From the IMG/VR virus record IMGVR_UViG_3300046328_000506, positions 32,001-96,000 of that record: DNA of 64,000 bases; one strand, given 5' to 3'. The position numbers and the translations under genes are program-made. The stretch is from a virus. This document shows positions 2,457 to 64,000 of the stretch, in pieces (position 1 is the first letter of the stretch; each line of letters begins with the position of its first letter). The notes under the pieces are model-generated. The model was not told where the DNA came from. It saw only the letters and a list, made by a program, of their open reading frames with translations, and made no database searches.

Positions 2457-4226
2457 TTAAAAATATGTTGTTGAAACTACTACTTCATTGGCGACTCCTG
2501 TTGCTGTATTGTCATTATTTACTATACCCGATGTAATGGCTAAACTAAAACCTGTCGGAAGTCTTATTCCAAATGCACCACAATCTATAGAAACACTCTG
2601 CCCTGCTGGAATAAAATAATTCAATGTAGCATTTGTAGTTCCCATTACAACTGAAGCACTCAAAGAGTTAAATATTTTCAACCATCTTCCTGTCGCAGAT
2701 ATATTACTACAATGTATATTATTCAATACTGTAGCACCTGATTTAATTTGAATTAAACTATTTGTAGCATTAGACACTATATTAGTATGTGTAGAAGCCC
2801 CTTGTGCTGTGCTACCTACATTTGTTACTACACTGTTTGCACCTAAATTGGCAGTTACTGTACCTGAAACAGCTTGGGTATTTACATAAGTAGGAATTGT
2901 AGATTGTAAACCGTTTACTAATAAAGTAGTTGTTCCTCCTGTAGTTGCTGTAGTAAGCCTTAAAATAAAATATCTCGCTATTACATTTGTTATTCTTAAA
3001 GCCGTAGTATTAAAAGTACCAGAAATACCTCCACCAATAGGGTCAAATAACTGCCCATTTTGTCTTACGGCTAAAGTAGGGTCATTACTCCACTGCCCTG
3101 TAATTACACCTGTCGTACCTATTGAAGTACATTGTATAGATAAACTTCTAAGTTGTGAGCAATCTATTACTAATAAATCTGTGTTGATAGGTATCACTCC
3201 TACTTGTGAAAAAGAAAATGGTGTTAATGGTACTTGTGTTGCTTGAATATTTTCGCTAGCACTCATTACACCTATCTCTAACTTATTGTGATTTTTACAA
3301 GTAATATAATCAAGAATAATGTTGGTATTAGTTGCAGGAGGAGTTGCTCCATTTAATACTGCAACACCAGCACCCATTGTATCATATTGACTTGGAATAA
3401 CCCTTGTATGTCTTGCTACTCTTATTTCGTTAATATAAAAAACTACTTCTTCAGTAAGTAATTCGACACGATATTCTAAACTTGTTGCTGTAGTTAAACC
3501 GTTTGGAATTGTTACAACTGTCTCTTGAATTTCATTACCTGTCGGAGCTATTGTTGGATTTCTTGCAGTTTGACATTTTATTGTAGTATTTGTCGTACCA
3601 TCTGCTTGAAATCTTGCAAACCATTTAGTAGGAGAACCCTCATCATTTAAACCAATATTAATTGTCTGATTTATAATTCTTTGAGATATACTTAAACCTG
3701 CTCTATATACTAATGGAGCTACATCAACAAATCTACCTAATACTGTTACAGCACTTGCTGTAGTTCCTGCGGCTATCGTAGCTGCTCCAGAAGCCACTGA
3801 TGTTGTTGCTCCTGTTCCAGTAAAACTTCTTACTATTTGTCTACTTGCTACACCTGTTGTAGTTGCCCCTGTATAAGGTGTTTCAAGAATTATTTGTGTA
3901 GGAGTAATTGTATCTATTTGAACAAGTGTGCTCTCAGCATGACCGTCAATATTTACATAATCACCTGCTTTTACATCATAAGTATTAAATGCTGTTCCCG
4001 TAACTATATCACTTCCATTTGTAAAAGTACAAGTGCCAATACTAACTCTTAAAGAAGTATTTGCAAAGTTTACTCTAAAAGTACCTTCATCTGTTAAAGC
4101 AGCACCTCTCATCATAAGATTACCATCTGCATCAAAAGAGGCTTCTACTACATCTGGCGCAATAGGAGCTACTGGAGGATAATAATCTTTTTGTATTCCG
4201 TTTAATCTAAAATTTTCTGCGTACAT
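2457..4226 (-). CDS. Tail fibre / receptor-binding-like structural protein
   Basis: 589 aa, Thr/Gly/Val-rich beta-type composition; N-terminal GTCTFTNGSDIVTG module resembles one in 35894..36673. Confidence 0.65.
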   Translation of the reverse strand: MYAENFRLNGIQKDYYPPVAPIAPDVVEASFDADGNLMMRGAALTDEGTFRVNFANTSLRVSIGTCTFTNGSDIVTGTAFNTYDVKAGDYVNIDGHAESTLVQIDTITPTQIILETPYTGATTTGVASRQIVRSFTGTGATTSVASGAATIAAGTTASAVTVLGRFVDVAPLVYRAGLSISQRIINQTINIGLNDEGSPTKWFARFQADGTTNTTIKCQTARNPTIAPTGNEIQETVVTIPNGLTTATSLEYRVELLTEEVVFYINEIRVARHTRVIPSQYDTMGAGVAVLNGATPPATNTNIILDYITCKNHNKLEIGVMSASENIQATQVPLTPFSFSQVGVIPINTDLLVIDCSQLRSLSIQCTSIGTTGVITGQWSNDPTLAVRQNGQLFDPIGGGISGTFNTTALRITNVIARYFILRLTTATTGGTTTLLVNGLQSTIPTYVNTQAVSGTVTANLGANSVVTNVGSTAQGASTHTNIVSNATNSLIQIKSGATVLNNIHCSNISATGRWLKIFNSLSASVVMGTTNATLNYFIPAGQSVSIDCGAFGIRLPTGFSLAITSGIVNNDNTATGVANEVVVSTTYF

Positions 4227-4229
4227 ATA

Positions 4230-4658
4230 TTAGCTTAATATAAAGTTAGTATCGTTTGAAATTATTGTAATAAAAGTATTTTGATGTCTAATTATTAAAT
4301 TTACATCATTATTAATCGTTTGTCCTCCTGTTGTGATAACAGTAATAATATTACCTGTAGAATCTGTTTTTACTATTGATACTTCTTTACCAGCATTACT
4401 AATAGCAGTTGGTAAAGTAAGAGTAACATCACCTGAAGTACAATTTACTTGATAAATAGTATTATAAACTAAACTTGTATTTGTACTTATAGAAGATATA
4501 GTCGGAGGTGTAGGTGCTGAAGGAGTAGACGGATTATCTATCCAAGTACCAGCACTTCTCAGTTCTAATTTACCAGTATCTAAATTAAAAATTACATCTC
4601 CATTAGACCAACTTCTTGCTGCAATTTCAGCATTTGTATATCCTATATTTGCTTGCAT
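4230..4658 (-). CDS. Fibre-associated structural protein
   Basis: VNCTSGDVTLTLPTA...GKEVSIVKTD...GGQTIN module common in phage fibre/decoration proteins. Confidence 0.6.
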   Translation of the reverse strand: MQANIGYTNAEIAARSWSNGDVIFNLDTGKLELRSAGTWIDNPSTPSAPTPPTISSISTNTSLVYNTIYQVNCTSGDVTLTLPTAISNAGKEVSIVKTDSTGNIITVITTGGQTINNDVNLIIRHQNTFITIISNDTNFILS

Positions 4659-5068
4659 TATTTTACATATTTATTGAAATATCCAAGAGAATCACCTCTT
4701 GCTATTGCATTATTAATTAAATCATCAACTATTGTAGGTTGTGTAAGTAAAAATTGAAAGAAATCAAACTCACCTATTGGTTCACCTTTTGTATCTGTGT
4801 GTAACAAAGTTGGAGGTAAAGTAGAATTATCATATTCTAAATACTCACCAGTTAAACTATAAACTTGTTCGTTATTACTTGCAATTAATTCACCTGTTGT
4901 AGTTAGGTTTTCTATTACTTCCCCAAGATTATTCTCGTGGTATATTTTGACAAAGAATAATACTGAGTTAGCATCTTCTGAATCAAATAAAAATTTCTTC
5001 TTTTCAGCATAGTAAAATCTTTTTACTCCTGCTATTTTTGGATAATCTGATATGTATATTTTTGTCAT
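4658..5068 (-). CDS. Hypothetical protein
   Basis: 136-aa ORF in the fibre operon, TAATG coupling. Confidence 0.6.
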   Translation of the reverse strand: MTKIYISDYPKIAGVKRFYYAEKKKFLFDSEDANSVLFFVKIYHENNLGEVIENLTTTGELIASNNEQVYSLTGEYLEYDNSTLPPTLLHTDTKGEPIGEFDFFQFLLTQPTIVDDLINNAIARGDSLGYFNKYVK

Positions 5069-5078: not shown

Positions 5079-5849
5079 TTAGTATGTTATTGTTGAACCA
5101 AGAGAATTAACCCAAGCACCACCACCTAAGTTAGACGTAGCACCAAAGCTATTAAGTGTTGTGTGCAGTTGGTTTGGGCTATTATCTGTGGCTTGCGTGC
5201 CTGACTTTTGATTAAAATTATAATTTACTACAATGTTACTTTCTAACCCACTTATGTTATTCCCAAAAGATGTATATAGTTGATTTATTTGTCCTACAGT
5301 TATGTTATTATTAAATATTTTAAAATCATACAAAATCATATTTTGAAAATTTGTATTTGCTGGCTGTAAGACTGGTGGGTTAATATCTGCATTAACACCT
5401 CCTATTGTCAAATAAGTATTTGATACATTTATGTTAGTAATCAATGCATTTGTACCTGTATTTACTAAAACACCATCAACATATAATAGCAAAGAAGTAC
5501 CATTTCTTACCATTGTTACTTGGTATGTTCTATTTAATGAAATAGTTGGACTGGTAATTACTACTGAGTTACCTGCTGAATTTCTAATAGTTGCATAAAA
5601 AACACCTGTGCTTAATACATATATACTATAATTAGGAACTCCATTATAAACACTAAAAACTATTCCGTCAACAGGATTTAATGAAATTACATTTACAATA
5701 GTAGAAATAGAGAAATTACCTGTTCCAAAGTTAAAAATACTTGCAGGAGAAGGTGTAAAGGTACTTTGATTTGTACCATTAAACTTTAAACCATTTCCAA
5801 TCTGATTGACTGTGATTAAGTCTGTATTTCCTTTTGTTAAAGTTTTCAA
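5079..5849 (-). CDS. LamG/concanavalin A-like lectin domain protein
   Basis: GNGLKFNG, NFSIS, VTMVRNG..LLYVDGVLV, LYDFKIFN, YNFNQKSG; paralogue of 5846..6601. Confidence 0.8.
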   Translation of the reverse strand: MKTLTKGNTDLITVNQIGNGLKFNGTNQSTFTPSPASIFNFGTGNFSISTIVNVISLNPVDGIVFSVYNGVPNYSIYVLSTGVFYATIRNSAGNSVVITSPTISLNRTYQVTMVRNGTSLLLYVDGVLVNTGTNALITNINVSNTYLTIGGVNADINPPVLQPANTNFQNMILYDFKIFNNNITVGQINQLYTSFGNNISGLESNIVVNYNFNQKSGTQATDNSPNQLHTTLNSFGATSNLGGGAWVNSLGSTITY

Positions 5850-6601
5850 TATGTTATGCTACCTCCTAAGCTATTTACCCATGAATTATTTACTCCTAAA
5901 CTTGTATTTGCAAAATTAGTAAGAGTTCCATTTAAGTTATTTGTAGATTTATCTATTAATGTATTCCCTTGTTTTTGATTAAAGTCGTAATTAGCAACTA
6001 TGTTAGAAGTAAGTCCTGTTAAATTTGTTCCAAAACTTTCGTATAATTGAGTAGCCTCCCCTGTAGAAAGAGCTTTATTAACTATCTTTAAATCGTATAT
6101 TATGTGATTAGCATAATAAGCGTAGTTTGGTAAATATACAACACTACCTAATTGCCAGTTTGTATATGCTTGTGTATTATCTGCCAATGTAAATCCCCCT
6201 GAATATAAAGGTATTGCCTCTGTTACTTGTCCATTGACATTAAAATATCCTGTTCCATCACCTCTTGCTATAAAAGAAACATTGTAAAGTACATTTATAG
6301 AAAGATTAACATTAATATATAAGTCTAATAATCGAGAATTTCCAGAAAACAACTGAACATCAATAAAAGAAGCAGCATATACTATTCTATAACTTCTTAA
6401 AGTAATTGAACTCGTATCTTGTGCTGAAAGAATATAATTGTTATTTACGCTAAACGCTTTTGGTGTAAATGAAAAATAGAAAGAAATTGGTGAAATTGGA
6501 GTAGTTGGTACACTATTTAACCCACTTCCTAAATTAACAAAATCATTTACTCCATCATATAACAAACCATTTCCTATCAAATTTGCTGTTCCTACATTCA
6601 T
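5846..6601 (-). CDS. LamG/concanavalin A-like lectin domain protein
   Basis: GNGLLYDGVNDFV, IYDLKIVNKALS, YDFNQKQG..LIDKS.N.LNGTL. Confidence 0.8.
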   Translation of the reverse strand: MNVGTANLIGNGLLYDGVNDFVNLGSGLNSVPTTPISPISFYFSFTPKAFSVNNNYILSAQDTSSITLRSYRIVYAASFIDVQLFSGNSRLLDLYINVNLSINVLYNVSFIARGDGTGYFNVNGQVTEAIPLYSGGFTLADNTQAYTNWQLGSVVYLPNYAYYANHIIYDLKIVNKALSTGEATQLYESFGTNLTGLTSNIVANYDFNQKQGNTLIDKSTNNLNGTLTNFANTSLGVNNSWVNSLGGSITY

Positions 6602-7935
6602 TACGCTAATTTAGTTAAGTTAAAGTTTGTAGAAGTTATCGTGTTATTCGCGTTTGCAGTTCCCCAAATTACTGTTACACTTAGAAGTTGAGATATTGTA
6701 GTATCAACAGTATTTGTAGCTGTATTAAGCAAACATATTTTTTCTTCTGTGGTATTATCTCTGAAATACTTAAATAAACCTTGTGAGAATATTGTACCAC
6801 TTACACCAGTTGTTCTATTAGTCAATTCAAAATCTAATTCAAATCTTCTTGTGCCAGTAATACTTAATAAAGTTGTTGCTGTTGTATCTAAAATAGTTAC
6901 AGCATTTAATTTTACTTGTATTCTAATAGTAGGTGGGATAGCGTCATCACCGATAAAACCTTGCACTCTACCTTTCAAAGTTTTACCAACCACAAAGAAA
7001 CTTGCAGGTAAAGAAAGAGTACCTTGCCCAGTCCCTAATAAAGTTGTTTCTGCTACAGTATTAGCTACTGTTTGACTTGCAGTTTGAGTAAATATTGTGG
7101 CGTTTAACCACTCGTTTATTCCACCTATGTCATATCTATAAGATTGTTGTGCTGAATCCCAAATATCTAATCCTGTTATTTCTTGTGGAGGTGCTGCTAT
7201 ACCTGATAAATTGCCTAAAAATCTATTATTCTGAATGTTTTGAATTTCAGTAAGTAAGATTTGAGCAAAAGGAAGGCTACGCCAAGTAGTACCATCGTAC
7301 CACTCTAATCTACCTGTTGTTGTATTTGAATACAATTGACCAATTAAAGGCGAAGGGATGGCAACACTTCTATTAGCTGTAGTTCCACTAAATCTTTCAA
7401 CAAAAGTGTTAAAAGCTATATTAGTAATATTACCAGAACTTCTACCAACTAAACTATTTGTTGTAACAGCAAAATCTTGTTCATTAGCTAATGCTGCTGT
7501 AGGATTAGATTTGATTGTATTTGCAGCACCTTGAGCTAATTGTGTGTTAGTAATTGAGTTATTTATTACTATTGCAGTAATTGAAGGAGTTCCATCATTA
7601 TACGTAAAATCAATTGTAGAACTATCTACTAAAATCGTACCTACAGCGTCTTGCGCTTGCTCATCTGTATAAAGTGCACCACCAACTTCCATATCCCACA
7701 ATACCCATGTAGCTGATAAATAAAGAATACCATCACCAGGCTGAACAGTAGTTCCTCCAACTGTACCACTATTAGTTCCGATTAACCATAAATCACCTTC
7801 AGTAGGAGTAGACGGATAACTTGGATTTGTATTGGCATTAGTAATAATACCTTTAACATTTATTACATTACCACTTACTACACCAGTTTCATAATAGTCT
7901 AACTCGTTTGTAAATGGATTAAATTTCCATGCCAT
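6601..7935 (-). CDS. Tail fibre-like structural protein
   Basis: MAWKFNPFT N-terminus, EQAQDAVG repeat-type motif, GQLYSNTTTGRLEWYDGTTW motif typical of fibres. Confidence 0.65.
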   Translation of the reverse strand: MAWKFNPFTNELDYYETGVVSGNVINVKGIITNANTNPSYPSTPTEGDLWLIGTNSGTVGGTTVQPGDGILYLSATWVLWDMEVGGALYTDEQAQDAVGTILVDSSTIDFTYNDGTPSITAIVINNSITNTQLAQGAANTIKSNPTAALANEQDFAVTTNSLVGRSSGNITNIAFNTFVERFSGTTANRSVAIPSPLIGQLYSNTTTGRLEWYDGTTWRSLPFAQILLTEIQNIQNNRFLGNLSGIAAPPQEITGLDIWDSAQQSYRYDIGGINEWLNATIFTQTASQTVANTVAETTLLGTGQGTLSLPASFFVVGKTLKGRVQGFIGDDAIPPTIRIQVKLNAVTILDTTATTLLSITGTRRFELDFELTNRTTGVSGTIFSQGLFKYFRDNTTEEKICLLNTATNTVDTTISQLLSVTVIWGTANANNTITSTNFNLTKLA

Positions 7936-48957: not shown

Positions 48958-51693
48958 TTATTCACAACTAATACAATGCGCAAATTTACGACTAAACTCA
49001 GAAGCAGATGAAATGTTATGCTGATAATACAAAGTCTTAACTCCCATATCGTGTGCAAGTAACATTAATCTATTTACTTCTTTTGCTGTAGTATCTGCTG
49101 TAATAAATAAGTTTAATGATTGTGATTGGTCAATATACTTTTGCCTATGTGCTGCTTGTATAATTATTTCTTCTTGACTAATCTCTCGTGATGTTTTAAA
49201 TACTAACTTCTCATCATCTGTAAGGAAATCTAAATGTAACACACTTCCCTTTTCTTTCATTATACTATTCCATACTTCATCGGTATTTTTACCTTTTTTA
49301 ATTAATAAGTTTTGTAAGTAGGGATTTTTAATTACAAACTTTCCTTTTGCTAAATCTTTAATATAATAGTTACTATCGTAAGGTTCTATACTTTGACTTA
49401 CTTGTCCTAAAATAAACGCACTACTTGTTGTGGGGGCAATTGCTTGTAGTGTAGTATTTCTTCTACCTGTTCCTTTTGTCCATTCACATTCACCAAACAT
49501 TACAGCTAACTTTTTAGACGCTTTTAAGGCTTGTGATTGAATTGTTTTTTGTATTGATACATTATGTAGTCTTGCTTCCAACGATTCAAATGGTATCATC
49601 TTAGATTGTAAATAAGAGTGATAACCTAACCTGCCAATACCTAATGCTCTATGATTCTTAGCAAAGTTTACTGTCTTTTCCATGAACTTTATCTTAGATG
49701 CCTTATTTATAAACTCTGTCATTACAGCATCCAATAAAAACGTAACTACTTCTACACAATCTGTATCTTTCCACTCTTCATAATACAAATCATTTAAGGA
49801 AGCTAAATCACACACAAAAGATTCTTCAGTATTTACTGGCAAACAAACTTCAGAACAATTAGATGTGATAACACTATTACAAATCCAAAGATGCTCATTT
49901 GAATTCACTGTCGTACAATACACATCTTCATTACCAACATATTCTATAGATTTTATTTTATACGATTTTTTACAGTTACTCCTATATTCTCTATCTTCAA
50001 TAATAATATTTTTTCGTGATAAAAATCCTGTGTATTTTTCTAATTCTAATGCTGCATTTTTATCTCCAAAATATAATCTCCAACAATCCTTTGTTTCATA
50101 ATATTTATGACCACCATTTCCGTCTGGTAACAATGTTTCGCCAGCTTTTCTCATTATTGCTATCTTTGCATTTAAACCGAGATTGTTAAATAGTATTTGT
50201 AATTCTTCTAAAAACTCTCGATTAATGTTTGATAGTGATACTTGAAGTGCTTGATTACTTTCTTGTAATCCGACTGTGCCATCAGCATATAATAATCCCC
50301 TTATATATTGCCATTGAGTTAATTCGTCAGATTCCCAAATCCATTGTGGCACATATCCTTTTTCAAAATTTAATGCTTTTTTTAAACTTTTACTTGTTAA
50401 TCTTTTCTTTTTAACAGTAGAATGATAAACTGCACAATCTGCAAATTTTGCAATTTCATAAACTCTATTGTTTACTCCAATATTTGATTTATATTTGTTA
50501 GTAATATTAGTAAAACATGTTTCAATTTCTGGTATTAAATCAAAATCGTTTTCCCACACATCTAACATAACAGAGTCTTTATGCTGAGTTCCATCTGCTT
50601 GATATAGTCCTAATAAAAACGCCTCTTCTTGCATTGAATTTTTGCCAAAAATACCTTTGTTTGTTTGAGTGCAAACTTTATCATCAACTTTTAAATCTTT
50701 ACATTCAACCATGCCATACTTATTGTCTCCATAATAAACTTTTACTTTGTGATAAGAAGTAACTGTGTGAGTAATTCCATTCTCCAAAGTTAATTTATAC
50801 ACAGGAGCATCTTTCTCAATTAATCTCATTGGGGAAGCAGTTACAATTTTTGTATTATCAAAAAGTGTTAATTCTTCACCTCTGTCATATAATTCTTTAA
50901 CAGTTAATAAGCCGTCTGAGGTTGGAACTCGTTCACTCCCTATTACACAAAGATTTGACGCTTTAATCAAGGATTTGTTCTTATAAACTTCTGGTGTAGA
51001 TTCTCCGTTATTTACATTATCTTTAAAAAATATGTAAGGTAAACCTGTTTCAAATCTTTTCTGAATTACTTTAGCCCAAAGATTTCTTTTTTCAGCATCA
51101 CCCTCTTTCATTTTTTTAATCCAATCAGAAGAAATACATACTCCCCAAGTTAATTGTTGTATTGGATTACCTTCTTTTCTTATGCCCAACCACTCCTCTA
51201 TATCTGGATGTGTAATGTCTTGGTAAACAGCAAGATAACCCCTTCTTGATGAGCCTTGAGAAATCGTATTACTTACACTTTGGAATAGTTCTAAGAAACT
51301 AAATGTACCATTACTCTTACCATTGTTTGTAATAGCACTGCCTCTTGGTCTTACATCTCCAAAATAAGCTGATGTACCACCGCCAAGTTTACTCATCATA
51401 CCTATTTCTGCTGATGTTGATAAAATATCTTCTACTGTATCGTTTACATAACTTGAAAAGCAAGAGATTGGTAAACCTCTGTCTGTGCCAAAGTTAGTCC
51501 AAATAGGTGTAGATAAACTTATCCAACCATTAGCTATGTATTGTTGTAGTTTTATAGAGAAACCTTCTATCCCTAATATCTTTTCAGCATTATCCCCAAC
51601 TATTTTTATTCTTTCTTCTACTGTTTGATTTGGTAGTAAATAATCTTTTGATAGAAACTCCTTAGAGTAGTCTGTAAGCCATCTTATAGTCAT
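48958..51693 (-). CDS. nrdA: Class I ribonucleotide reductase alpha subunit, intein-containing, no ATP cone
   Basis: GLPISCF, SQGSSRRG, SNL|CSE, AIAPTTSS, IDQSQSLN, KTLYY, C-terminal CISCE. Confidence 0.95.
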   Translation of the reverse strand: MTIRWLTDYSKEFLSKDYLLPNQTVEERIKIVGDNAEKILGIEGFSIKLQQYIANGWISLSTPIWTNFGTDRGLPISCFSSYVNDTVEDILSTSAEIGMMSKLGGGTSAYFGDVRPRGSAITNNGKSNGTFSFLELFQSVSNTISQGSSRRGYLAVYQDITHPDIEEWLGIRKEGNPIQQLTWGVCISSDWIKKMKEGDAEKRNLWAKVIQKRFETGLPYIFFKDNVNNGESTPEVYKNKSLIKASNLCVIGSERVPTSDGLLTVKELYDRGEELTLFDNTKIVTASPMRLIEKDAPVYKLTLENGITHTVTSYHKVKVYYGDNKYGMVECKDLKVDDKVCTQTNKGIFGKNSMQEEAFLLGLYQADGTQHKDSVMLDVWENDFDLIPEIETCFTNITNKYKSNIGVNNRVYEIAKFADCAVYHSTVKKKRLTSKSLKKALNFEKGYVPQWIWESDELTQWQYIRGLLYADGTVGLQESNQALQVSLSNINREFLEELQILFNNLGLNAKIAIMRKAGETLLPDGNGGHKYYETKDCWRLYFGDKNAALELEKYTGFLSRKNIIIEDREYRSNCKKSYKIKSIEYVGNEDVYCTTVNSNEHLWICNSVITSNCSEVCLPVNTEESFVCDLASLNDLYYEEWKDTDCVEVVTFLLDAVMTEFINKASKIKFMEKTVNFAKNHRALGIGRLGYHSYLQSKMIPFESLEARLHNVSIQKTIQSQALKASKKLAVMFGECEWTKGTGRRNTTLQAIAPTTSSAFILGQVSQSIEPYDSNYYIKDLAKGKFVIKNPYLQNLLIKKGKNTDEVWNSIMKEKGSVLHLDFLTDDEKLVFKTSREISQEEIIIQAAHRQKYIDQSQSLNLFITADTTAKEVNRLMLLAHDMGVKTLYYQHNISSASEFSRKFAHCISCE
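49858..50949 (-). mobile_element. Intein (364 aa) with LAGLIDADG homing endonuclease in nrdA
   Basis: Begins CVIGSERV, ends VYCTTV...ITSN before the catalytic Cys; LLGLYQADG and IRGLLYADG motifs. Confidence 0.92.
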
Positions 51694-51715
51694 TGGTTTT
51701 ATCTATTATAGGTTG

Positions 51716-53665
51716 TTAAAATAAATCGTCTGAAGTAATGCTTTGTGCTTTCTTAGTGTAATTTGTAGGTACTTTATTGAAAAAGTCTGTATGTGTATTA
51801 GATAAGGTTTCTACATCAAACCATGCTACTTGTTTTAATAGTTCTGTATTAACATAGTATATCTTATTAGCGCCTATCATTTCTAATGACTTGTTAAATC
51901 TATCTTTTAAAAATTCTATAACTACATTTTTAGGTAAGAAATCTATTTCTCCATTTTGGAATATCCAATCTACTATTTTTTCTTCTGCTGAAAATGCTTT
52001 TTTACAAGCTCTTGTAATTGTGTCGTAAAACTCTTGTGTAAATATTTCTGGGCATTGCTTTTTAACTAAACTAATGATATAAGCCCCAGCTTTGGCATGG
52101 AGGTCTTCCTCTGACCTTGTAGCTTGTATTACATTATCAATACCTTTAAATAAATTCTTTTCTTTGTTGAATGATTTAATAATGAGGAACTGAGAAAACA
52201 AAGATACATTCTCTATAAATAAACTAAATAGAGTAAGGGTTAGTATGTATTGTTCTTTGTTATTTGAGCTTGCGTTTTTTAAATATTTTTCTAAATAATC
52301 TATTCTCCCTTGTATAACAGGTTCTTCTATTAGTTTTTCAAACGCTTCATTTAAACCTAATAATTCTAAAAGATTAGCATAAGCTCTTAGATGACGAATT
52401 TCCGAGTTACCCCCAATAAACGTACAATTATTATATCTTGTTACAATTGCACCAGATGGTACAGTTACACAATATATATTTCCTGTGTAATTTTCTATTG
52501 TTTCTTTAAGTGCGCTAAATGCTACTTTTTCTCTGTTAGCAATAAATGAAACAATATAAACATCGTTAAATGTTTCTTTTCTGGAATCTTTATGTATTCC
52601 CATATTAGCTTTATATCCAGCCAATGTTCCTATCATTTGTACAATATCAGCGTTTGTTTTGTCTGTGGTAGAATATTTTATCTTACAATCTTTTTTGTGT
52701 GGTAATCTTGTGCCATCCCAGTAAGACAATTCTTCAACAAAATCTTTACACCATAAATGAGATTGTTTATCAATTACAACCCAATTAAATTGCTTGTAAT
52801 TAAATTCTGTATCCATATCAATTTCAACTTTAATGTAACCTGTTTTTGTCACATTAAACGTTCTATATGTTACATCGCAATCTTTTAATATTTCAAAAAG
52901 CCTTTCTTTTTTACGTTCTTTCTTAACACTTATTTCATAAGTATGACAATTAGAACTTGTGCCCCTATGCCTTTTTTCTCCACTTTTTAATCTTCTCCAA
53001 CGAATTGAACCATCTGCTTGTATCGCAATTTTTAATCTTTCTAATGATGTTAGTTTATGAATTTCACCATTAATAATACCTGCTTCTGGTAAAAAATTAT
53101 TACTATTTTTTACACCAAGTTCTTTAATACTTTTTGATGTGTAGTTTCCTTTTGAATCAAAATACACGATTCTATGATTTGGTGTGATTTGTACATCAAT
53201 ACCTTTTTTGTGAAGTTTGTGAATTTCTCCAGAGTAATGTTCTTTAATAGTCCTAAGTGCTGGTGTAAAATTAATCTTACAATCTTCAGTATACTGTGCT
53301 ACTAAATCACCAACATTTATTTTTTCAAAATTTACCCATCCATTTGGTGTTAGTATTTCAGTGCCTTCAATATGACACTCACCGAAGCTAACACCCAGCA
53401 TATCAAATTCTGGTTTGGGGAATTGATTATACAAGTTACTCCAAAACCTTTTTACATTTACTTCTATTTGTGATATTGCAAGCATTGCATTTGTTACAGC
53501 ACTTCGTTCTACGACACTCAAATTTGCTTTGAAGTCTTGTATATCACTGTTATAATTGAACTCGCTATGAAGCCAATAGCTATGGTTTATAGCATCTACA
53601 AAATCTATTAACTCTGGGTACTCGTAAGGTTTTAACGTAGTTCTTTTTTCAAATATATTTGGCAT
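51716..53665 (-). CDS. nrdB: Class I ribonucleotide reductase beta subunit, intein-containing
   Basis: KPYEYP, SQIE, SEIRH..AY, IENVSLFSQF, EEDLH, DFF. Confidence 0.95.
   Translation of the reverse strand: MPNIFEKRTTLKPYEYPELIDFVDAINHSYWLHSEFNYNSDIQDFKANLSVVERSAVTNAMLAISQIEVNVKRFWSNLYNQFPKPEFDMLGVSFGECHIEGTEILTPNGWVNFEKINVGDLVAQYTEDCKINFTPALRTIKEHYSGEIHKLHKKGIDVQITPNHRIVYFDSKGNYTSKSIKELGVKNSNNFLPEAGIINGEIHKLTSLERLKIAIQADGSIRWRRLKSGEKRHRGTSSNCHTYEISVKKERKKERLFEILKDCDVTYRTFNVTKTGYIKVEIDMDTEFNYKQFNWVVIDKQSHLWCKDFVEELSYWDGTRLPHKKDCKIKYSTTDKTNADIVQMIGTLAGYKANMGIHKDSRKETFNDVYIVSFIANREKVAFSALKETIENYTGNIYCVTVPSGAIVTRYNNCTFIGGNSEIRHLRAYANLLELLGLNEAFEKLIEEPVIQGRIDYLEKYLKNASSNNKEQYILTLTLFSLFIENVSLFSQFLIIKSFNKEKNLFKGIDNVIQATRSEEDLHAKAGAYIISLVKKQCPEIFTQEFYDTITRACKKAFSAEEKIVDWIFQNGEIDFLPKNVVIEFLKDRFNKSLEMIGANKIYYVNTELLKQVAWFDVETLSNTHTDFFNKVPTNYTKKAQSITSDDLF
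52406..53377 (-). mobile_element. Intein (324 aa) with LAGLIDADG-like endonuclease in nrdB
   Basis: Begins CHIEGTEILT, block B TPNH, ends IYCVTVPSG...GGN before Ser; IAIQADG and LSYWDG motifs. Confidence 0.9.
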
Positions 53666-57453: not shown

Positions 57454-57966
57454 TTAATTTTCATACCCCTGCCTATACACTACATTGTTTGGAAATTTAG
57501 TTACCCTATTCCCTTGAAAAAAGAAATCTGGGTTTGTCCAGTATATCCCTTTAACTACTGATTGTTGTATTATACAATACCTTGTTAATTCTTTTATCGC
57601 ATTATGATATGTAGAGAGAGATTTAATTAAATTCTCATCCATATATCTTTTTGTATTTATCCACACAAAATCTTTATTTGAGTCTGCTTCATATATTAAC
57701 CACAAATATAACCTTTGTGATTTGTCAGATAGCCCATTTATAATTTGTCTGTGAATAGCTTTTGTATAAACTTTTGTAAATGGAGTATATTCCATCTCCA
57801 ATTGCTTGTTTATCAAATCCCCATCCTTGTCTTTATGATAAGTATCTTTCTGGGTAAACGTAGATACTGGTATTTGTAACCCACATACAAAAGGATTAAT
57901 ACCTAAATCCTTTTCTTCAAATAATGGTTTGTATACTCTTGATGATTCTTTCTTTCTCGCAGCCAT
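57454..57966 (-). CDS. RepL-like replication/HTH protein (copy 2)
   Basis: Colinear paralogue of 10118..10645 (FTKVY, YHNAIKEL, GIYWTNPDFFFQGNR). Confidence 0.75.
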   Translation of the reverse strand: MAARKKESSRVYKPLFEEKDLGINPFVCGLQIPVSTFTQKDTYHKDKDGDLINKQLEMEYTPFTKVYTKAIHRQIINGLSDKSQRLYLWLIYEADSNKDFVWINTKRYMDENLIKSLSTYHNAIKELTRYCIIQQSVVKGIYWTNPDFFFQGNRVTKFPNNVVYRQGYEN

Positions 57967-57985
57967 TGATTGTTCTAATTATTTA

Positions 57986-58017
57986 CAAAGATACGAAGAA
58001 TTTATTATAAATACAAA
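57986..58017 (-). promoter_or_regulatory. Bacteroidota sigma-A promoter
   Basis: TTTG-N20-TATCTTTG upstream of repL-like copy 2. Confidence 0.78.
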
Positions 58018-58713
58018 TAATTGTACTAATTATGTTTATTTGTATAATGTTTTTATTCTTGTAATATACAGTACAAAAAATTACTATGATAAAAATGATA
58101 TAACTTATTGATTGTTAGAGCTTTACAAGGATATTATGACAAACTCGTTTTAGCAGTAATATTAATTACTTTGTACCAAATCCAAGTATAGTTAAATAGT
58201 GGTATAACTACTGTGATACTCAATGAGTTACAGTGATTTTCTCTATGTAAAAAATTGTACTACTATTTTTATACCCCTCCCCCTTTTGAATTTAATATCT
58301 TTAACCGTTATAAATTTTTACACAGTACCTATATTAGTAATGATACCCCCTCACTTTTTAATGGGATTATAGTTTCTGATAATAAAATTGTATGTGTGTG
58401 TTCTAAGGGTGATACCATCTCATAATTGACCCTCCATCAAGAGCGTATTAGAAAATAGAATTGATATACTGTTTCCTATTGGGAACAGTCTATTGATTTT
58501 ATAAAAAAGAATAGCTTTACAGTAATGTAAAGTAACAGAATCAATTAAGCGGTGTTAGTTGCTTAATCTATTCTTATTCTAATGTGCATAGTAAGGCGTT
58601 ATCTTGCAAGGCTTAACACACTTGTAAGATATTAGGATAAGAATAAAAGGGTATCCCTTTTTTCTCTTTGCAGTGTTAAATAGTTTCCTTACAACTATTG
58701 CAAAGTTTTTTAA

Positions 58714-58786
58714 CTTGTATATGACAGATGCCTTTACGTGGCATACAAGATAAGTAATTACGAAAGTAATGAAACTAAATCTGTCA
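58714..58786 (+). ncRNA. HDV-like self-cleaving ribozyme candidate
   Basis: P1 CTTGTAT/ATACAAG, P2 TGACAGAT/ATCTGTCA, P3 GCC/GGC with 7-nt L3 TTTACGT, P4 ATTAC-GAAA-GTAAT, J4/2 ...ACTAA; the helices occur in the nested double-pseudoknot order. Confidence 0.7.
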
Positions 58787-58953
58787 AAATTGGATTATTC
58801 CAATAGAGTTTAAGTCTTAACACGTTGTTTTGTCTTAACTTTGTTGTACTATTCTAATAACAGTTGTGTATGTTTTCTTTAATAGCATACAAAGGTTAAA
58901 TTGTGATATACCTATTAATCTACTCACACAAAAATACCATACCATTTATTTAT

Positions 58954-59433
58954 ATGAAATCATTAACAGAATTATTAGCAGAATTAGCAGCAGCACCAGC
59001 AAACAAAAAAGCAGCAATTCAGTTACAAATTGATGCCAAAAAAGCAAGTAGAACTAATAGCTTAACTGCCTATGCAGAAAAATATGTAACAAGTTCCTTG
59101 TTTTATGGTTCAAAAGAAGAGCAGGCAATTAATATGCAGGTTGTTTTCAATGATGATGATACTGTAAAAACAAAAGAAGTGCAGGCATCAGGCAACAAAA
59201 AAACACAACGTATCATTGCAATTAACATTGATACGGAAAAGGAAATCACTTTGCCGTCGTTATCTGAATTGAAAAAATTTAGCGGTGAATCTGAAAACTT
59301 TTGGAATCATTGCAATTATGGGCAACCGTTTGCTTTAAAGTTTACTACTATCAAAAGTGGTGAAGAGAATCCGTTGACTTCAGAAACCTATACAAGACCC
59401 ACTTTTGCTGTTAGTGAAATTACGTCTATGTAG
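58954..59433 (+). CDS. Hypothetical protein, probably highly expressed
   Basis: ATG at 58954 (MKSLTELLAELAAAPANKK); followed by a terminator. Confidence 0.7.
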   Translation: MKSLTELLAELAAAPANKKAAIQLQIDAKKASRTNSLTAYAEKYVTSSLFYGSKEEQAINMQVVFNDDDTVKTKEVQASGNKKTQRIIAINIDTEKEITLPSLSELKKFSGESENFWNHCNYGQPFALKFTTIKSGEENPLTSETYTRPTFAVSEITSM

Positions 59434-59441
59434 TAAGTCTT

Positions 59442-59486
59442 ATACATACCTTGTATATTTCTATATATAAGGTATGTATTTTTTTT
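59442..59486 (+). terminator. Intrinsic terminator
   Basis: ATACATACCTT / AAGGTATGTAT stem plus T-run. Confidence 0.7.
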
Positions 59487-59519
59487 AATTGATTTTTTCA
59501 CACTTTAATTTTTACTTTT

Positions 59520-59705
59520 ATGAAGTGTACTATTTTATTTTTTGCAGGTATTGACAAAGAAACAAGGGAATATACCAAAGAATCTTATGTTTGTGATTTT
59601 CCTTTAAAATTTGGATTTGGTTCTTTTAACGAGGATAGCATTATTAAAAATATACCTAAAAAGATATTTGTCAAAGATATTATATCTATTGACTTAATAG
59701 ATTAA
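59520..59705 (+). CDS. Small hypothetical protein
   Basis: 61-aa ORF. Confidence 0.5.
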   Translation: MKCTILFFAGIDKETREYTKESYVCDFPLKFGFGSFNEDSIIKNIPKKIFVKDIISIDLID

Positions 59706-59964
59706 TAAAGAATATTGAGAATGTTAGAGTTCTCTATTCTTTTAAAATATAAAATACCTTGACTCAGTCATTTCAAACATTTTTACTATTCAACAGTAAA
59801 ACGTGTAAGAAAATATAACGGTGTCGTCATAGGTGTTTGTGTCTATTTTTAGTCTACTCTAACAAATAATTTAGGCTTGTCTAAACTTTTGTTTTGGTTT
59901 ATCTAATCTTTTTCTTATTAAATACCTTGACACAGGGAAATCTCACATTTAATCATTTAAAAAC

Positions 59965-60171
59965 ATGTTAGTTATATATAGAGGAATACTTTCTTTTGCT
60001 GATTTAAGAGAATTAAGCAAAGAGTCTGACATCTCCAACAGACAATACTTGATAAAAGTAATTGGGGAAACTATGGAAACATTTTTTGTTACCAAAGAAG
60101 ATTACGAATCATTTCGTAGTGGACTCTCTACATCTGATAGAGGTACATATTGGTTTGAGATGGGATATTAG
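59965..60171 (+). CDS. Small hypothetical protein
   Basis: 68-aa ORF with AT-rich leader. Confidence 0.55.
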   Translation: MLVIYRGILSFADLRELSKESDISNRQYLIKVIGETMETFFVTKEDYESFRSGLSTSDRGTYWFEMGY

Positions 60172-60193
60172 TTTAGGTGTTCTTAAAACACCT

Positions 60194-60295
60194 CTGTCGT
60201 TTATATGCACTATGGAGTATCTTACTAACGTAAGATACGTGTATAAACCTGATGAAATAAGTATCTAACGACACTTAGGGGATAACCCGAAACAG
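60194..60295 (+). ncRNA. Type III hammerhead-like ribozyme with insertion
   Basis: Stem III CTGT/ACAG, GTC cleavage triplet, 10-bp stem I, CTGATGA core, GGG-ATAA-CCC stem II, GAAAC; 23-nt insert between A9 and G10.1. Confidence 0.6.
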
Positions 60296-60349
60296 TAACC
60301 ATAAATTTTCTTAATTTTACATTTTCAAATACTAAATAATATAAATATC

Positions 60350-60562
60350 ATGGAAGAAACATTAGTAATAAATGGTATAACTTATGGAGAAGTTGTATCG
60401 GAGTTTACAGCGTTAAGCAAATATACTGGCGAATCAATTTCTGTTGAAGGTGTTGAATTTAATCAGTACGAAAATGGGAAAATTGAAACTCCTATTGGCT
60501 ACGACACTATTGATGGTGAAGATTGCACTATTTGGGGTAGTCGTTATCCTGTATCATTGTAA
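60350..60562 (+). CDS. Small acidic hypothetical protein
   Basis: 70-aa ORF. Confidence 0.6.
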   Translation: MEETLVINGITYGEVVSEFTALSKYTGESISVEGVEFNQYENGKIETPIGYDTIDGEDCTIWGSRYPVSL

Positions 60563-60586
60563 AGGCAAATTTTAACTTAGAAAAAT

Positions 60587-60799
60587 ATGACACAAGAAGT
60601 ATTTATTGACGAACAAGGGAATGTGATTCTTAATAGAGAAACATTTGAACCAAAGCCAAACGAGAAATTTGGCAATCCATATCGTGAAAATGGGGAATTG
60701 CACGTATCTTTTACTTTTGAAGGAGGGCATGATTATCCTATGTTTTATTCTTCAATAGAAGAGCTTAGTGCCATCAAACAATGGTATTGGGAAAGCTAA
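60587..60799 (+). CDS. Small acidic hypothetical protein
   Basis: 70-aa ORF. Confidence 0.6.
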   Translation: MTQEVFIDEQGNVILNRETFEPKPNEKFGNPYRENGELHVSFTFEGGHDYPMFYSSIEELSAIKQWYWES

Positions 60800-60862
60800 A
60801 TAAAACTTAAACTTGCAAATTTATATTAGATTATTCTTCTTTTAGAACTATCTATTGTATAT

Positions 60863-61162
60863 TTGCAAGTTGATTTTAACTTAAAAGACGAACTCGTTAC
60901 GTCATTAAAGAAGCGAGATAAAATGCCATTATTTTCAAGCCAAGTAATTGGCTATTTTAACAATGAGTACGGGAGTGCTTATTGTGATATTTACTGCTCA
61001 GATAATTTGTCAGAGCAACAAATGGAAGAGATTCATCAGAATCATCTTCAAAACGGTGATGTGTATCGCCAATGTACTTTTATGAGTCTTGTAGAGGCTC
61101 GTAAAATGTGGAAAGAAAATCCACAGTACATAGAACTATTTGAATCCTTTTGGGAAAAATAG
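60863..61162 (+). CDS. Hypothetical protein
   Basis: ORF; start uncertain (internal MPLFS possible). Confidence 0.55.
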   Translation: MQVDFNLKDELVTSLKKRDKMPLFSSQVIGYFNNEYGSAYCDIYCSDNLSEQQMEEIHQNHLQNGDVYRQCTFMSLVEARKMWKENPQYIELFESFWEK

Positions 61163-61590
61163 TGTACACTGATAGGGGAAATAAACTCCTTAATCAATAG
61201 TAGAGTTGGGTAATCGCATGATTATTTAAACTATTGAGGATTGAACAACAATTCTATTTTTTGTATGTTTTTAAAAACATAATCCTGTTTGAGCAGGGAT
61301 ACCATAGAGTATCAAAGGTGATTAGGCTCAAATTTCGTCACAGTGCCAGTTGAGAAGGTTCTTAATCAACCTTCTCAAGAAATCGTGTGTCATCACACGG
61401 AAGATTGGGGAAACCCATTAGGAGGAGTGGAACCTTGTGATGAGCAAGGAAACTCTATAACAACTCCATTGATAGATGAAAATCTTCTGTGGATAGTTGT
61501 AGAAGACTAATAATCTTCTAACGTAAGACGACCACGAAACGGTTGAAAGAGTAGTAACTCTCCTGAATAAAAGCAGGGTATAGTAAAAAA

Positions 61591-61790
61591 GATTTCATAG
61601 CTCAATTGGTCAGAGCATTTTAAAATAAACAACAGCTTTTTTTATAAGTGAAGATAGTAACTTATAATTTAAACGTAGTTGTTGAAGTGATTAAAAGATA
61701 ATAAAAGCCCAGCAGAATGGGAAGAAACGAAAACTTTTAATCAGTTGTTTATTTTTAAAAAGGTTTCAGGTTCAAGTCCTGATGATTTCA
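61591..61790 (+). ncRNA. tRNA-like RNA with the anticodon loop replaced by a 133-nt insert
   Basis: D-arm GCTC-AATTGGTCA-GAGC, T-arm TCAGG-TTCAAGT-CCTGA, variable loop AGGTT, acceptor GATTTCA/TGATTTC (two U-U mismatches), anticodon stem TTTTA/TAAAA. Confidence 0.7.
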
Positions 61791-62526
61791 CGAACTCGAA
61801 TATATTGTTAATGGCATCTGGACTCCGAAGTAGGCTATGTTGTGAGACATAGAAAAAAAGGGCTAACAGAAATAATGTTCTAACAATACAACGAAGCATC
61901 TGTGTAGAAGTACAATACATAGGTAATCATAGCTTCCATATAACCGTTTTAAAGTGTGTTGGGTTATAGAATACTAATAGACTATACAATGTCTATTGAA
62001 TATCGGCTCGAAAGAGACCATATAAAGTTTGAAGTAAAAGTTTCGTTGGCTCAAATGAATACTGCTAAGAGTTGAAAACGCAGAGACGAAACAATATTTT
62101 ATTTCAAATGGTGGCAGCAGTCAGAAATGATTGCCTCAATTATATTATTACAACAACCTTATGTTAAGTTAAAAGGTAAAAGACGGTTCAGGTTTAAACC
62201 GATACCTTGTTGTAATAAGATAAAAGAGTAGTAACTGTTAGTAATAACAGACTTCATCAGACGTGATGACTTGGAGAGCAAACTAAGGTTCGTGTATCTC
62301 TTTACGTTGTGCAGACCCGAAAGGGTAATAAACAAATGGTCAATAATAAGGGAAATTTCTCTTTAAAGTAAAATTATGTAAAGTAATATATGTGTTGTTA
62401 TAGCAACAGTGAGTAATCACAAACATATATGAAATCATAAGCTGCTATAACAGAACTTTAAATAGAAAAGGAGTATCGAATACTTCATTGACCGCATTTT
62501 TTTAAATTAATTAAAACTCATATACG

Positions 62527-63114
62527 ATGAAAACTACTCTTTTCGTGGCATTTAGCCACACTCTTACTCAAAGCCAAATTGACGGCTTTCAAAGTCAATT
62601 TTCTACTCAAACTGTTATCAGAGAATTTTCTGATAATGGTGGTATTCCCACTGGTGACGGTGGAGAAGCGTTTACTGAATTTGTTGATTTCAGTATTGTA
62701 AGTCTTGGTGAAGTTGCACCAGAATTACAAGCTCAAATGAGCCAAATTCCTGCAAGAGCTACTTTACAAGAAGTTCAAGAGCTTGCGAAAAGCATTGTAG
62801 CTGAAGCAATCAAAGCTGGTGCAACACATTTTTTCTGTGTTGGTGAACCTACTCTTACAATGTGGGCTAACTTATTGATAGAAAGAAAGATGGTGTCAGC
62901 AAGACTCACTTACTATGTGTCAGAAGATGGTACAGAAGTAGGGTGGGGTAAAACTTCATCTGTTTTTGTAGAGGATAGATACAAAGTCGAACATCCTCAA
63001 ATTACTTGTATTCAATCAACCACTGAACGTCAATCAGTTGAGGAAACTCAACCTGACGGAAGTGTTTTAAAAAAGGCTATCTTCAACCACGTAATGTGGC
63101 GAGAAATGTTTTAG
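62527..63114 (+). CDS. Csx20-like CARF-related protein (candidate cA4 ring nuclease / anti-CRISPR)
   Basis: LFVAFSHTLTQSQ...LQAQMSQIP...VGEPTL...STTERQSVEE.QPDGSV.K..IF.HV.WRE matches my recollection of the Csx20 pattern FSHxLT..Q / WSNIP / QGDF / TTxR.S.E..DG..K.F.HV.FR. Confidence 0.7.
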   Translation: MKTTLFVAFSHTLTQSQIDGFQSQFSTQTVIREFSDNGGIPTGDGGEAFTEFVDFSIVSLGEVAPELQAQMSQIPARATLQEVQELAKSIVAEAIKAGATHFFCVGEPTLTMWANLLIERKMVSARLTYYVSEDGTEVGWGKTSSVFVEDRYKVEHPQITCIQSTTERQSVEETQPDGSVLKKAIFNHVMWREMF

Positions 63115-63195
63115 TTCTTTAAGTTTGTAGGTGTATATCTTTAAAACCTTCACATAATGTTCCAAAGACTATTAGGAAAGACTAATAACAATACC

Positions 63196-63289
63196 TGCTA
63201 TAAAGCCATGTAGGCTCTCAATCTTCAAAAGAGAAGGGAAAGTGGTGAGTAACATCATTAGTAGGGTACGAGTCCCTTATATAGCACAA
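63196..63289 (+). ncRNA. Degenerate tRNA-like element with a CUUCAAA (UCA) loop and long variable arm
   Basis: Acceptor TGCTATA/TATAGCA, D-stem AGCC/GGCT, variable arm AGTGGTG/CATCATT, T-arm AGGG-TACGAGT-CCCT; anticodon stem imperfect. Confidence 0.45.
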
Positions 63290-63465
63290 TTAAACTTATT
63301 TTTAAATATTTACCACAATAGTTTTAATACTGTTGTTTGGTATTTTTTACAACTTATTCCAAATGCAAGGGGTAAGTATGTTTAGTAATTGGGGCTTGTG
63401 GTTACTAATAGCTATGGTAGCTGTTAGGTATATTCGTGCAATTTTACTCATTAAACTATAATACT

Positions 63466-63627
63466 ATGGAAAACTCTTTTGAAGTAGAAATGGATTTCTC
63501 CGATTTAGAATTAGATTGGGAAATAGATGAAGACTTTGATGATTCAGATTTTATGGATTATGAAGAGTCTGATGACGAGTACCAAGAACGCTTAGAAAGG
63601 TCTTGGGCTAAATACGAAAACGATTAA
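63466..63627 (+). CDS. Extremely acidic small protein (DNA-mimic candidate)
   Basis: 53 aa from ATG 63466; 24 Asp/Glu residues. Confidence 0.6.
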   Translation: MENSFEVEMDFSDLELDWEIDEDFDDSDFMDYEESDDEYQERLERSWAKYEND

Positions 63628-63694
63628 AAATAAACTTCCCGTTATCACCAGAAATCAAGTAGGGTGAATAACGGGTTTCCAAAATATTTATGTT

Positions 63695-63856
63695 ATGAAA
63701 TTATCACACATTGAAAATACAATCTTTGGATTAGGTGTGGCTACTTGTTTATTAAGTTGCTACACTATCCCTTTGTTACTACCACAAATATTCTTTTGCT
63801 TGGCTTCATTAACTTTGAGTATTGGAATATTTGAAAACACAACACAAAAAAATTAA
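63695..63856 (+). CDS. Small membrane protein
   Basis: Own translation MKLSHIENTIFGLGVATCLLSCYTIPLLLPQIFFCLASLTLSIGIFENTTQKN. Confidence 0.5.
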   Translation: MKLSHIENTIFGLGVATCLLSCYTIPLLLPQIFFCLASLTLSIGIFENTTQKN

Positions 63857-63891
63857 ATCATTTTACATAACCATTTAACTTTACAAAAATT

Positions 63892-64000
63892 ATGAGAAAA
63901 TTAATTTTGCCTATTCTATTAGGTTTCGTTCTTATTGCAATCTTAGGGATTGTGGGTTCAGTATCGGCTCAGTCAGCATTTGAAGTGGCTGTCTACACTA
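63892..64000 (+). CDS. Partial secreted protein
   Basis: MRKLILPILLGFVLIAILGIVGSVSA|Q signal peptide; runs off the window. Confidence 0.55.
   Translation, partial: MRKLILPILLGFVLIAILGIVGSVSAQSAFEVAVYT

Follow-up and report, generated by a model that had tools for sequence, protein, structure and literature searches.

We analyzed a 64,000-nucleotide (nt) window, bases 32001-96000 of the 130,171-base IMG/VR virus record IMGVR_UViG_3300046328_000506 (estimated completeness, 76%), and focused on a block of small plus-strand genes and noncoding sequence at 58450-63680 of that window. The block holds a variant hammerhead ribozyme, a candidate ribozyme resembling that of hepatitis delta virus (HDV), an interrupted gene for tRNA-Ile(UAU), a second tRNA-like element, long folded noncoding stretches, a gene for a protein resembling the ring nuclease Csx20, and several small open reading frames (ORFs) (Table 1). 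A sequence-only reading of this DNA had described an early anti-defense island, transcribed as one RNA that ribozymes and tRNA-like punctuation would cut into many pieces.

Table 1. Features of the plus-strand block, in window coordinates
Feature	Position	Strand	Basis or remark
Chain of long hairpins in the divergent spacer by the RepL-like gene	58450-58712	+	fold; z -6.3 for 58430-58953
HDV-like ribozyme candidate	58714-58786	+	nested double pseudoknot; fold and descriptor
ORF1, 159 amino acids (aa), no family	58954-59433	+	ORF list, family searches
Intrinsic-terminator-like hairpin, 17 bp, then U-run	59442-59487	+	directly after ORF1
35-nt repeat with AATACCTTGAC, two copies 168 nt apart	59748-59950	+	repeat search; promoter-like by eye
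ORF3, 68 aa, isoelectric point (pI) 4.8	59965-60171	+	ORF list
Hammerhead variant, type III topology	60194-60295	+	descriptor and fold; between ORF3 and ORF4
Three small acidic ORFs, pI 4.1-4.5	60350-60562, 60587-60799, 60923-61162	+	ORF list
ORF-free structured stretch, 428 nt, with motifs a and b	61163-61590	+	folding z
tRNA-Ile(UAU), 77 nt without insert	61591-61791	+	ARAGORN, introns allowed, default thresholds
ORF-free structured stretch, 735 nt	61792-62526	+	folding z
Csx20-like protein, 195 aa	62527-63114	+	NCBIfam and PADLOC profiles
Cloverleaf-shaped tRNA-like element	63196-63286	+	fold; ARAGORN at lax thresholds only
Very acidic ORF, 53 aa, 24 D+E, pI 4.1	63466-63627	+	ORF list

The hammerhead variant contains a complete core, with GUC at 60196-98, CUGAUGA at 60249-55, and GAAAC at 60289-93, and all three helices close directly on it. 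Stem I (10 bp) begins directly after the cleavage site, ends directly before CUGAUGA, and includes an 8-nt bulge and a perfect 9-bp hairpin; stem II is GGG/CCC (3 bp), directly 5' of GAAAC, and stem III consists of an A-U pair plus 3 bp. The anomaly is a 22- to 23-nt hairpin (UAAGU/ACUUA) inserted between A9 and G10.1. We searched with a relaxed descriptor that deliberately permits up to 30 extra bases at this point, and 60194-60295 was the sole match on both strands of the 130-kb record. The same descriptor matched 2 loci in 172 simulated genome-equivalents, neither with a stem I of at least 10 bp. In addition, the unconstrained minimum free energy fold of 60172-60310 is the ribozyme fold with all of its stems (-33.8 kcal/mol, z -3.1), and only 1 of 200 shuffled sequences was as stable.

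The loop of the inserted hairpin, AACGACA (60267-73), is exactly complementary to UGUCGUU (60195-60201), which spans the cleavage site. When we forced the helix between loop and cleavage site, the fold reached -33.3 kcal/mol, 0.5 kcal/mol from the ribozyme fold, and in the ensemble stems III and I had a probability of ~0.41 and the alternative helix one of ~0.35. These nearly equal energies and probabilities suggest an RNA poised between an active and a self-masked fold. A literature search, which was not exhaustive, found no hammerhead with a hairpin at A9/G10.1. We take 60194-60295 to be a real hammerhead derivative, statistically solid, for which self-cleavage is predicted.

The HDV-like candidate lies directly downstream of two terminator-like hairpins with U-runs, one of them recognized by eye. 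Every helix is there, in the expected order and of the expected length: P1 pairs 58714-20 with 58743-49 (7 bp), P2 pairs 58722-29 with 58779-86 (8 bp), P3 is GCC/GGC (3 bp) with the 7-nt loop L3 UUUACGU, and P4 is AUUAC-GAAA-GUAAU. P1, P2, and P3 together comprise 18 pairs, every one of them Watson-Crick. CUAA directly precedes the 3' strand of P2, with four further nucleotides earlier in the junction, and the first J4/2 residue is ambiguous. With a descriptor restricted to Watson-Crick pairs, a criterion picked after the candidate had been seen, the candidate was the sole match in the record, control bases A, G, and U in place of the catalytic C gave none, and 25 simulations contained 1 locus (0.04 per genome). 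The candidate has no Rfam match, and its fold is only just above chance. Of the two self-cleaving folds in the sequence-only reading, the hammerhead stood up to simulation, and the HDV-like fold has borderline significance.

Ribozyme-type sequence is not confined to the window. Twister-P3 matched at 334-401 nt past its end on the plus strand, with a small plus-strand ORF of this gene block on either side and with 49.0 bits against an Rfam gathering score of 39.9. This phage thus carries a curated class of self-cleaving ribozyme within the same block.

The sequence-only reading had also proposed two aberrant tRNA-like elements. Both shapes are present, but for the "giant" one an interrupted tRNA-Ile(UAU) gene is a better reading than punctuation. 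A structured insert of 124 nt (61624-61747) splits this tRNA after position 33; the tRNA has a perfect D arm and the T arm TCAGG-TTCAAGT-CCTGA. With introns allowed, ARAGORN called only this gene and two ordinary tRNAs in the whole record, and it made 1 call in 10 simulated genomes; with its default setting without introns, it called no genes in the window. The Rfam tRNA model gave the element 18.5 bits, below the gathering score of 29. The 5' end of the insert pairs with the anticodon loop and thereby lengthens the anticodon stem to a helix of ~16 bp, and the remainder forms three hairpins. We detected no group I or group II intron match at E (expect value) of ≤10 over 61150-62540, and the compared DNA contigs included no insert-free form of the tRNA and no joints. 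Because both strands of the acceptor stem are present, we set aside a reading of the tRNA-like pieces as a phage attachment site (attP).

Codon usage points to a use for such a tRNA. Of the 888 Ile codons in 24 large ORFs, 426 (48%) are AUA; for nine small ORFs of the block the figure is 15 of 58, a gap of ~3 standard deviations by simple arithmetic. Since the large genes are rich in AUA, a phage tRNA-Ile(UAU) would be useful chiefly for them, and they are mostly structural.

In the second tRNA-like element, a perfect acceptor stem of 7 bp is accompanied by a D-like arm and a long extra arm. Its "anticodon" loop is 6 nt long, and its T stem (4 bp, loop UACGAGU) is separated from the acceptor stem by a 2-nt gap. 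It falls below normal ARAGORN thresholds and is called only at settings that also yield 15 to 25 calls in 6.1 kb. Contig differences at 63235, 63253, and 63259 would each break a predicted pair, and all three lie near contig ends. Similar elements occur near related genes elsewhere. We scanned 20 Csx20-like loci, the window and 19 others, after dropping the near-duplicates L012, L013, L015, L017, L024, and L032, and in 4 of the 20 found a minihelix of T arm and acceptor stem on the same strand within 100 nt of the Csx20-like gene (40 nt after it in L002, 16 nt after it in L003, 29 nt before it in L014, and 82 nt after it in the window). This lax descriptor matched 13.5 loci per 186-kb simulated set, from which simple arithmetic gives ~0.3 expected in the flanks. 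In L011, a true tRNA-Met lies ~250 nt before the Csx20-like gene.

Two ordinary tRNA genes, tRNA-Gln(UUG) and tRNA-Met(CAU), lie 2796-3175 nt past the end of the window. Between them we noticed by eye two aberrant elements (~2870-2965 and ~2985-3070 nt past the end), both T-arm-like hairpins enclosed by long stems. The phage T4 tRNA cluster encodes the stable tRNA-like species 1 and 2 RNAs, and mitochondria are the basis of the tRNA punctuation model; in both, tRNA-shaped elements are cotranscribed with other RNAs and excised by RNase P and 3' processing enzymes. In contrast to those tRNAs, the tRNA-type elements here flank a protein-coding gene and are minihelices or aberrant cloverleaves rather than full tRNAs.

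The claim of extensive structured noncoding sequence was borne out. The stretches 58111-58953 and 61163-62526 contain no ORF of more than 59 aa, and because TAA, TAG, and TGA all occur in all six frames, we rejected hidden coding or another genetic code. Relative to dinucleotide shuffles, z scores of folding were -6.1 for 61163-61590, -5.3 for 61791-62526, and -6.3 for 58430-58953. A separate run gave -6.6, -4.2, -5.3, -5.5, and -2.6 for five noncoding windows and a mean of -1.0 for 13 coding windows, with values of -4.2 to -6.6 for the ORF-free stretches. The most negative coding control was the Csx20-like gene itself (62605-63034, z -4.06). In all, ~1.1 kb of strongly folded RNA surrounds the tRNA-Ile gene, and within it the 14-mer AAAGAGTAGTAACT at 62223 repeats a copy at 61546. 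In searches of Rfam, no family reached its gathering score anywhere in the window. We dropped a RAGATH-12 match at 61161-61212 (17.9 bits, E of 1.1, against a gathering score of 75); RAGATH names reportedly rest on gene-association work by Weinberg and colleagues in 2015.

Parts of this folded sequence recur in the 55-kb viral contig L002, which encodes a Csx20-like protein with 47% identity to that of the window. Motif a (61159-61250) has two copies in L002. Motif b (61273-61344; L002 4790-4858) shares 24 bases with a single mismatch (95.8% identity), and 4 of the 5 pairs of its hairpin differ between window and L002 yet still pair. The motif then carries a common AGGCTCAAA that is able to pair with the loop of the first hairpin. 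As only two lineages are involved, we regard both motifs as a lead rather than as proof. A search with an 18-mer of motif b found 3 stretches, one in the contig of L002 itself and two in an ORF of 415/416 aa on the opposite strand without the remaining motif. An 18-nt match in L004 looked like chance and was discarded, and Rfam gave nothing significant over L002 3100-5050.

Other repeats were seen in the same contigs. In L002, successive ORFs are directly followed by copies of a conserved hairpin, ACAGGC...TGTAAGTCCTGT (4457-4490, 5631-5660, and 6326-6355), which is also found just after the Csx20-like gene of L011; its presence in two unrelated contigs may mark a common terminator or processing motif. 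L002 also has another repeated noncoding motif at 3735-3800 and 4865-4935 (TAGTTCCTCACCG.GTGTGAGTTTGGTGTTGCAACCAGAGAGC), without a counterpart in the window. One of its intergenic spacers (6815-6865) contains the heptamer CCCTAAA, of the plant-telomere type, repeated eight times in tandem.

The identification of a Csx20-like gene was upheld by family profiles. The protein matched NCBIfam NF040559 in two stretches with an E of 1e-10 and PADLOC Csx20 profiles with E values of 1.3e-9 and 5.6e-6. As a single query it found no relatives in IMG/VR; an alignment query found 3 viral and 21 metagenome loci. Relatives at an E of ≤0.001 numbered 51 among 221 candidates, metagenomic or viral, and PF27247 was found in 48 of the 51. 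The family has invariant residues in N-terminal, central, and C-terminal blocks, with two variable inserts between them. Its peptide patterns did not occur in 185,579 reference genomes, and a sequence search of the PDB with the family found nothing. A structure model (predicted local distance difference test score, 83.7; confident outside the inserts) aligned in VIA-align to SAVED/CARF proteins with middling Z scores of 5.4-6.8, mixed with other Rossmann-like folds; the match to Crn1 Sso2081 (7ygh) had a Z of 5.4 and a root mean square deviation of 5.8 over 114 aligned residues, and aspartate racemases scored higher (Z of 7.5). Foldseek returned nothing for the model at an E of ≤0.001. From its sequence, the protein most likely degrades cyclic tetra-adenylate and blunts type III CRISPR signaling, which would make it a candidate anti-CRISPR.

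The tiny acidic ORFs were likewise as described, with a pI of 4.1-4.5 in 4 of the 10 ORFs examined. None of the small ORFs of the block matched a Pfam or PHROGs family, and Atlas searches with ORF1 and the 53-aa acidic ORF gave nothing usable. Separately, we observed no Shine-Dalgarno-like purine run within 20 bases before the start of any of 10 small ORFs (58954-63856), a possible hint that the host does not depend on these sites.

A single transcript across the block, as the sequence-only reading had assumed, did not fit the transcription signals. The block contains 13 terminator-like sites, compared with 2.0 ± 1.5 in shuffled sequences, including the 17-bp hairpin and U-run after ORF1 and another terminator-like hairpin just before the hammerhead. 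Two more (58468-58489 and 58645-58661) lie within the hairpin chain of the divergent spacer, and by eye a further hairpin and U-run is found at ~58667-58713. Copies of the TTGAC-containing 35-nt repeat occur at 59748 and 59916, and the record has no further close copy. Sigma-70-like promoter sites in the block were at chance level (31 compared with 30.0 ± 5.7), and TAnnTTTG occurred 7 times on the plus strand and 6 times on the minus strand. The terminator-like sites and the repeat pair point to several units or to read-through control, not to one plain transcript.

The surroundings of the block are those of a phage with ~30% G+C. Minus-strand genes extend to ~53.7 kb and include those for ribonucleotide reductase, portal, large terminase, and major head protein. 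A minus-strand RepL-like ORF (57454-57966; E of 2.7e-8) borders a divergent intergenic spacer of ~1 kb, downstream of which every ORF is on the plus strand. Short AATTGTACTA-type repeats occur after the RepL-like ORF at 58015 and 58249, and the region 57454-58450 may act as an origin of replication or as a control region. Freshwater metagenome runs contain DNA of this phage, and contigs from 4 DNA runs agree with one another except for a few differences near contig ends. By blastn against 50,697 phage records, the region had no DNA-level relatives, and the terminase had a single relative in IMG/VR at 23% identity. At 48958-53665, beside the large subunit of ribonucleotide reductase, we also noticed a 649-aa ORF that looks oddly fused or split: its small-subunit match is confined to residues 419-647, and large-subunit and PhoH-like PHROGs match the 420 residues at its start.

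Several parts of this arrangement have precedents, which we compared with excerpts of the papers cited. Hammerheads flank prophage genes in several cases, for which cutting of long phage transcripts into gene-length mRNAs was proposed and slow or regulated phage variants were discussed (Perreault et al. 2011, PMC3088659). Self-cleaving motifs likewise lie in intergenic spacers of a phage gene block here; unlike in the excerpted cases, the core carries a hairpin with a loop complementary to its own cleavage site, and what would be three differing ribozyme classes, rather than several hammerheads, share one block. HDV-like matches away from tRNAs number 526 in phages; most lie in noncoding DNA, in sense orientation relative to the gene closest to them (Kienbeck et al. 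2024, PMC10879173). Our candidate, if real, would be a further member of this non-tRNA-adjacent kind. It shares with the "theta" ribozymes of that report the small nested double pseudoknot and perhaps a catalytic C at the start of J4/2, and differs in having C rather than G at +1 and a weak P1.1, a comparison made with the ribozymes as described and not with the theta-motif descriptor itself. Lak megaphages have tRNAs with "enigmatic" introns and large expressed intergenic regions (Devoto et al. 2019, PMC6784885). As in those phages, a tRNA here is interrupted in its anticodon region by an insert that is not a recognized self-splicing intron, and the genome has long noncoding stretches; unlike the Lak phages as excerpted, this is a freshwater phage of roughly 130-170 kb, and its 124-nt insert masks the anticodon loop in a 16-bp helix. 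Csx20 degrades cyclic tetra-adenylate and is present in 4 of 28,114 phage genomes (Hoikkala et al. 2025, PMC12409355). The conserved blocks of our protein match models of Csx20, known from type III CRISPR loci and comparable to viral ring nucleases of the AcrIII-1 type (PMC12409355), but unlike curated Csx20 the protein scores below the family cutoff and has two variable inserts. Ribozymes beside phage genes, HDV-like ribozymes in isolation, and phage tRNAs with introns are each already in print.

Considering these findings together, we favor, at roughly even odds (about 50%), a model in which this plus-strand block of small genes combines ribozyme cutting at gene boundaries, an AUA-decoding tRNA, tRNA-type handles, and a Csx20-like ring nuclease. 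On the observed folds, fold statistics, and family matches we build predictions of cleavage, processing, timing, and function. The block would be the start of the plus-strand small-gene region of the phage, beside the RepL-like replication gene. Self-cleaving ribozymes most likely cut messages at gene boundaries, with the hammerhead acting between ORF3 and ORF4, the HDV-like element probably ahead of ORF1, and twister-P3 past the window. The interrupted tRNA-Ile(UAU) probably supplies AUA decoding, and the tRNA-shaped elements beside the Csx20-like gene are probably handles for host RNase P or RNase Z or stabilizers of 3' ends. Processing of phage messages by self-cleaving RNAs and tRNA-type signals is plausible because of the solid hammerhead between ORFs, the twister-P3 match, and the minihelices beside Csx20-like genes in other lineages. 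The "early" status of the block we infer only from its position and gene content, and the Csx20-like protein is its sole defense-related evidence.

A number of results weigh against this model. The hammerhead does not keep the uninterrupted link between A9 and G10.1, and the variants described within the excerpt of PMC3088659 have only 1- to 2-nt core insertions and never break that link. Rfam hammerhead covariance models did not match it at gathering score or at an E of ≤10; in fact, no Rfam ribozyme family matched at an E of ≤10 over 57900-64000, 58400-60360, or 61150-62540, where only weak unrelated rows appeared. A gapped hammerhead pattern matched 6 stretches; stems I and III were in place in none of them, and the hammerhead and HDV descriptors had no matches in 93 kb of related loci. 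HDV-like ribozymes have a G at +1 in a G·U wobble and a two-pair G-C P1.1. The candidate instead has C58714 paired with G58749 at +1, and for P1.1 only U-A and G·U pairings are possible, with no G-C. With G-U pairs allowed, the HDV descriptor matched 3 loci in the record, two of them within ORFs, and it matched 110 times in 31 simulated genome-equivalents (3.5 per genome), 16 of these with a P2 of at least 8 bp (0.52 per genome). With the catalytic C swapped for A, G, or U, the loose descriptor matched 12, 8, or 12 loci in the real record.

The remaining points on this side concern the tRNA, the folded stretches, and the protein. The acceptor stem of the tRNA-Ile has 5 pairs plus two U·U oppositions, and the tRNA would carry U at position 37. 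We know of no splicing route for a 124-nt insert that is not a group I intron, and the families RtcB, RNA_ligase, and PolyA_pol (CCA adding) were not found in the 76%-complete record. The minus strands of the two ORF-free stretches fold well, too (z -4.7 and -5.5), so folding alone does not fix the strand; absolute energies favor the plus strand (-124.6 compared with -108.2 and -176 compared with -157.1). Finally, the NCBIfam score of the Csx20-like protein, 42.1 bits, is under the curated cutoff of 70.

One alternative is an ordinary phage control region, in which the tRNA-like elements are decaying pseudogenes, remnants of a tRNA island, the hairpins are terminators, promoters, or protein sites, and the ribozyme look-alikes are inactive relics or coincidental. 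It would accommodate the enriched terminator-like sites (13 compared with 2.0), the failure of the second tRNA-like element at normal ARAGORN thresholds, the absence of an Rfam ribozyme match together with the borderline HDV-like fold, and the company of two genuine tRNAs and two aberrant T-arm elements 2.8-3.1 kb downstream. We nevertheless consider it unlikely, since the architecture of the hammerhead is far beyond chance, the tRNA-Ile call holds at default thresholds with introns allowed and with its D and T arms intact, a few terminators do not explain z scores of -5 to -6.6 over 400-nt windows, and motifs a and b have been retained in L002, where the Csx20-like protein has only 47% identity to that of the window. 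Another explanation, which we judge improbable, is that the left part (~58000-58950) acts as DNA, an origin or control region for the RepL-like initiator whose hairpins and repeats bind proteins. The RepL match, the divergent orientation of that ORF, the ~1-kb spacer, and the short AATTGTACTA-containing repeats are consistent with it; a nested pseudoknot with CUAA exactly before P2 has no rationale at the level of DNA, plus-strand terminator-like hairpins with U-runs indicate transcription, and such an origin says nothing about 59400-63680.

Two more elaborate schemes assign the RNAs larger roles. One, which we hold to be quite doubtful, treats the block as a set of timed RNA switches and decoys. 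The tRNA-Ile would be made as an inactive 201-nt precursor, its anticodon loop locked in the 16-bp helix by the insert, and translation of the AUA-rich large genes would be gated by activation of this precursor; the inhibitor hairpin and near-isoenergetic folds of the hammerhead would allow regulated cleavage; and RNA- or tRNA-targeting host defenses would be opposed by the ring nuclease together with the tRNA-shaped elements and the folded RNA (~1.1 kb). The full model of the sequence-only reading, with one early transcript cut into noncoding RNAs and mRNAs and the RNAs countering immunity as decoys or inhibitors, appears the least probable of all. In its favor, a single strand carries three ribozyme-type elements (the twister included) and several of tRNA type within 6 kb, together with a likely anti-CRISPR ring nuclease, acidic miniproteins, and structured RNA that has no other explanation. 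Strong terminator-like sites nonetheless lie inside the block, the repeat pair looks promoter-like by eye, no RNA element matches a known anti-defense RNA, and decoding of AUA offers a plain alternative role for the larger tRNA-like element.

This phage bears on two questions, the role of self-cleaving ribozymes in phages and the way in which phages handle tRNA inserts other than group I introns. Within 5-6 kb, it places a hammerhead, an HDV-like candidate, a twister, a masked tRNA-Ile, and minihelices by ring-nuclease genes side by side. If the hammerhead cuts, the accepted architecture of its class would be widened, and if the tRNA-Ile is matured, it would point to a splicing or activation route undescribed for bacteria.

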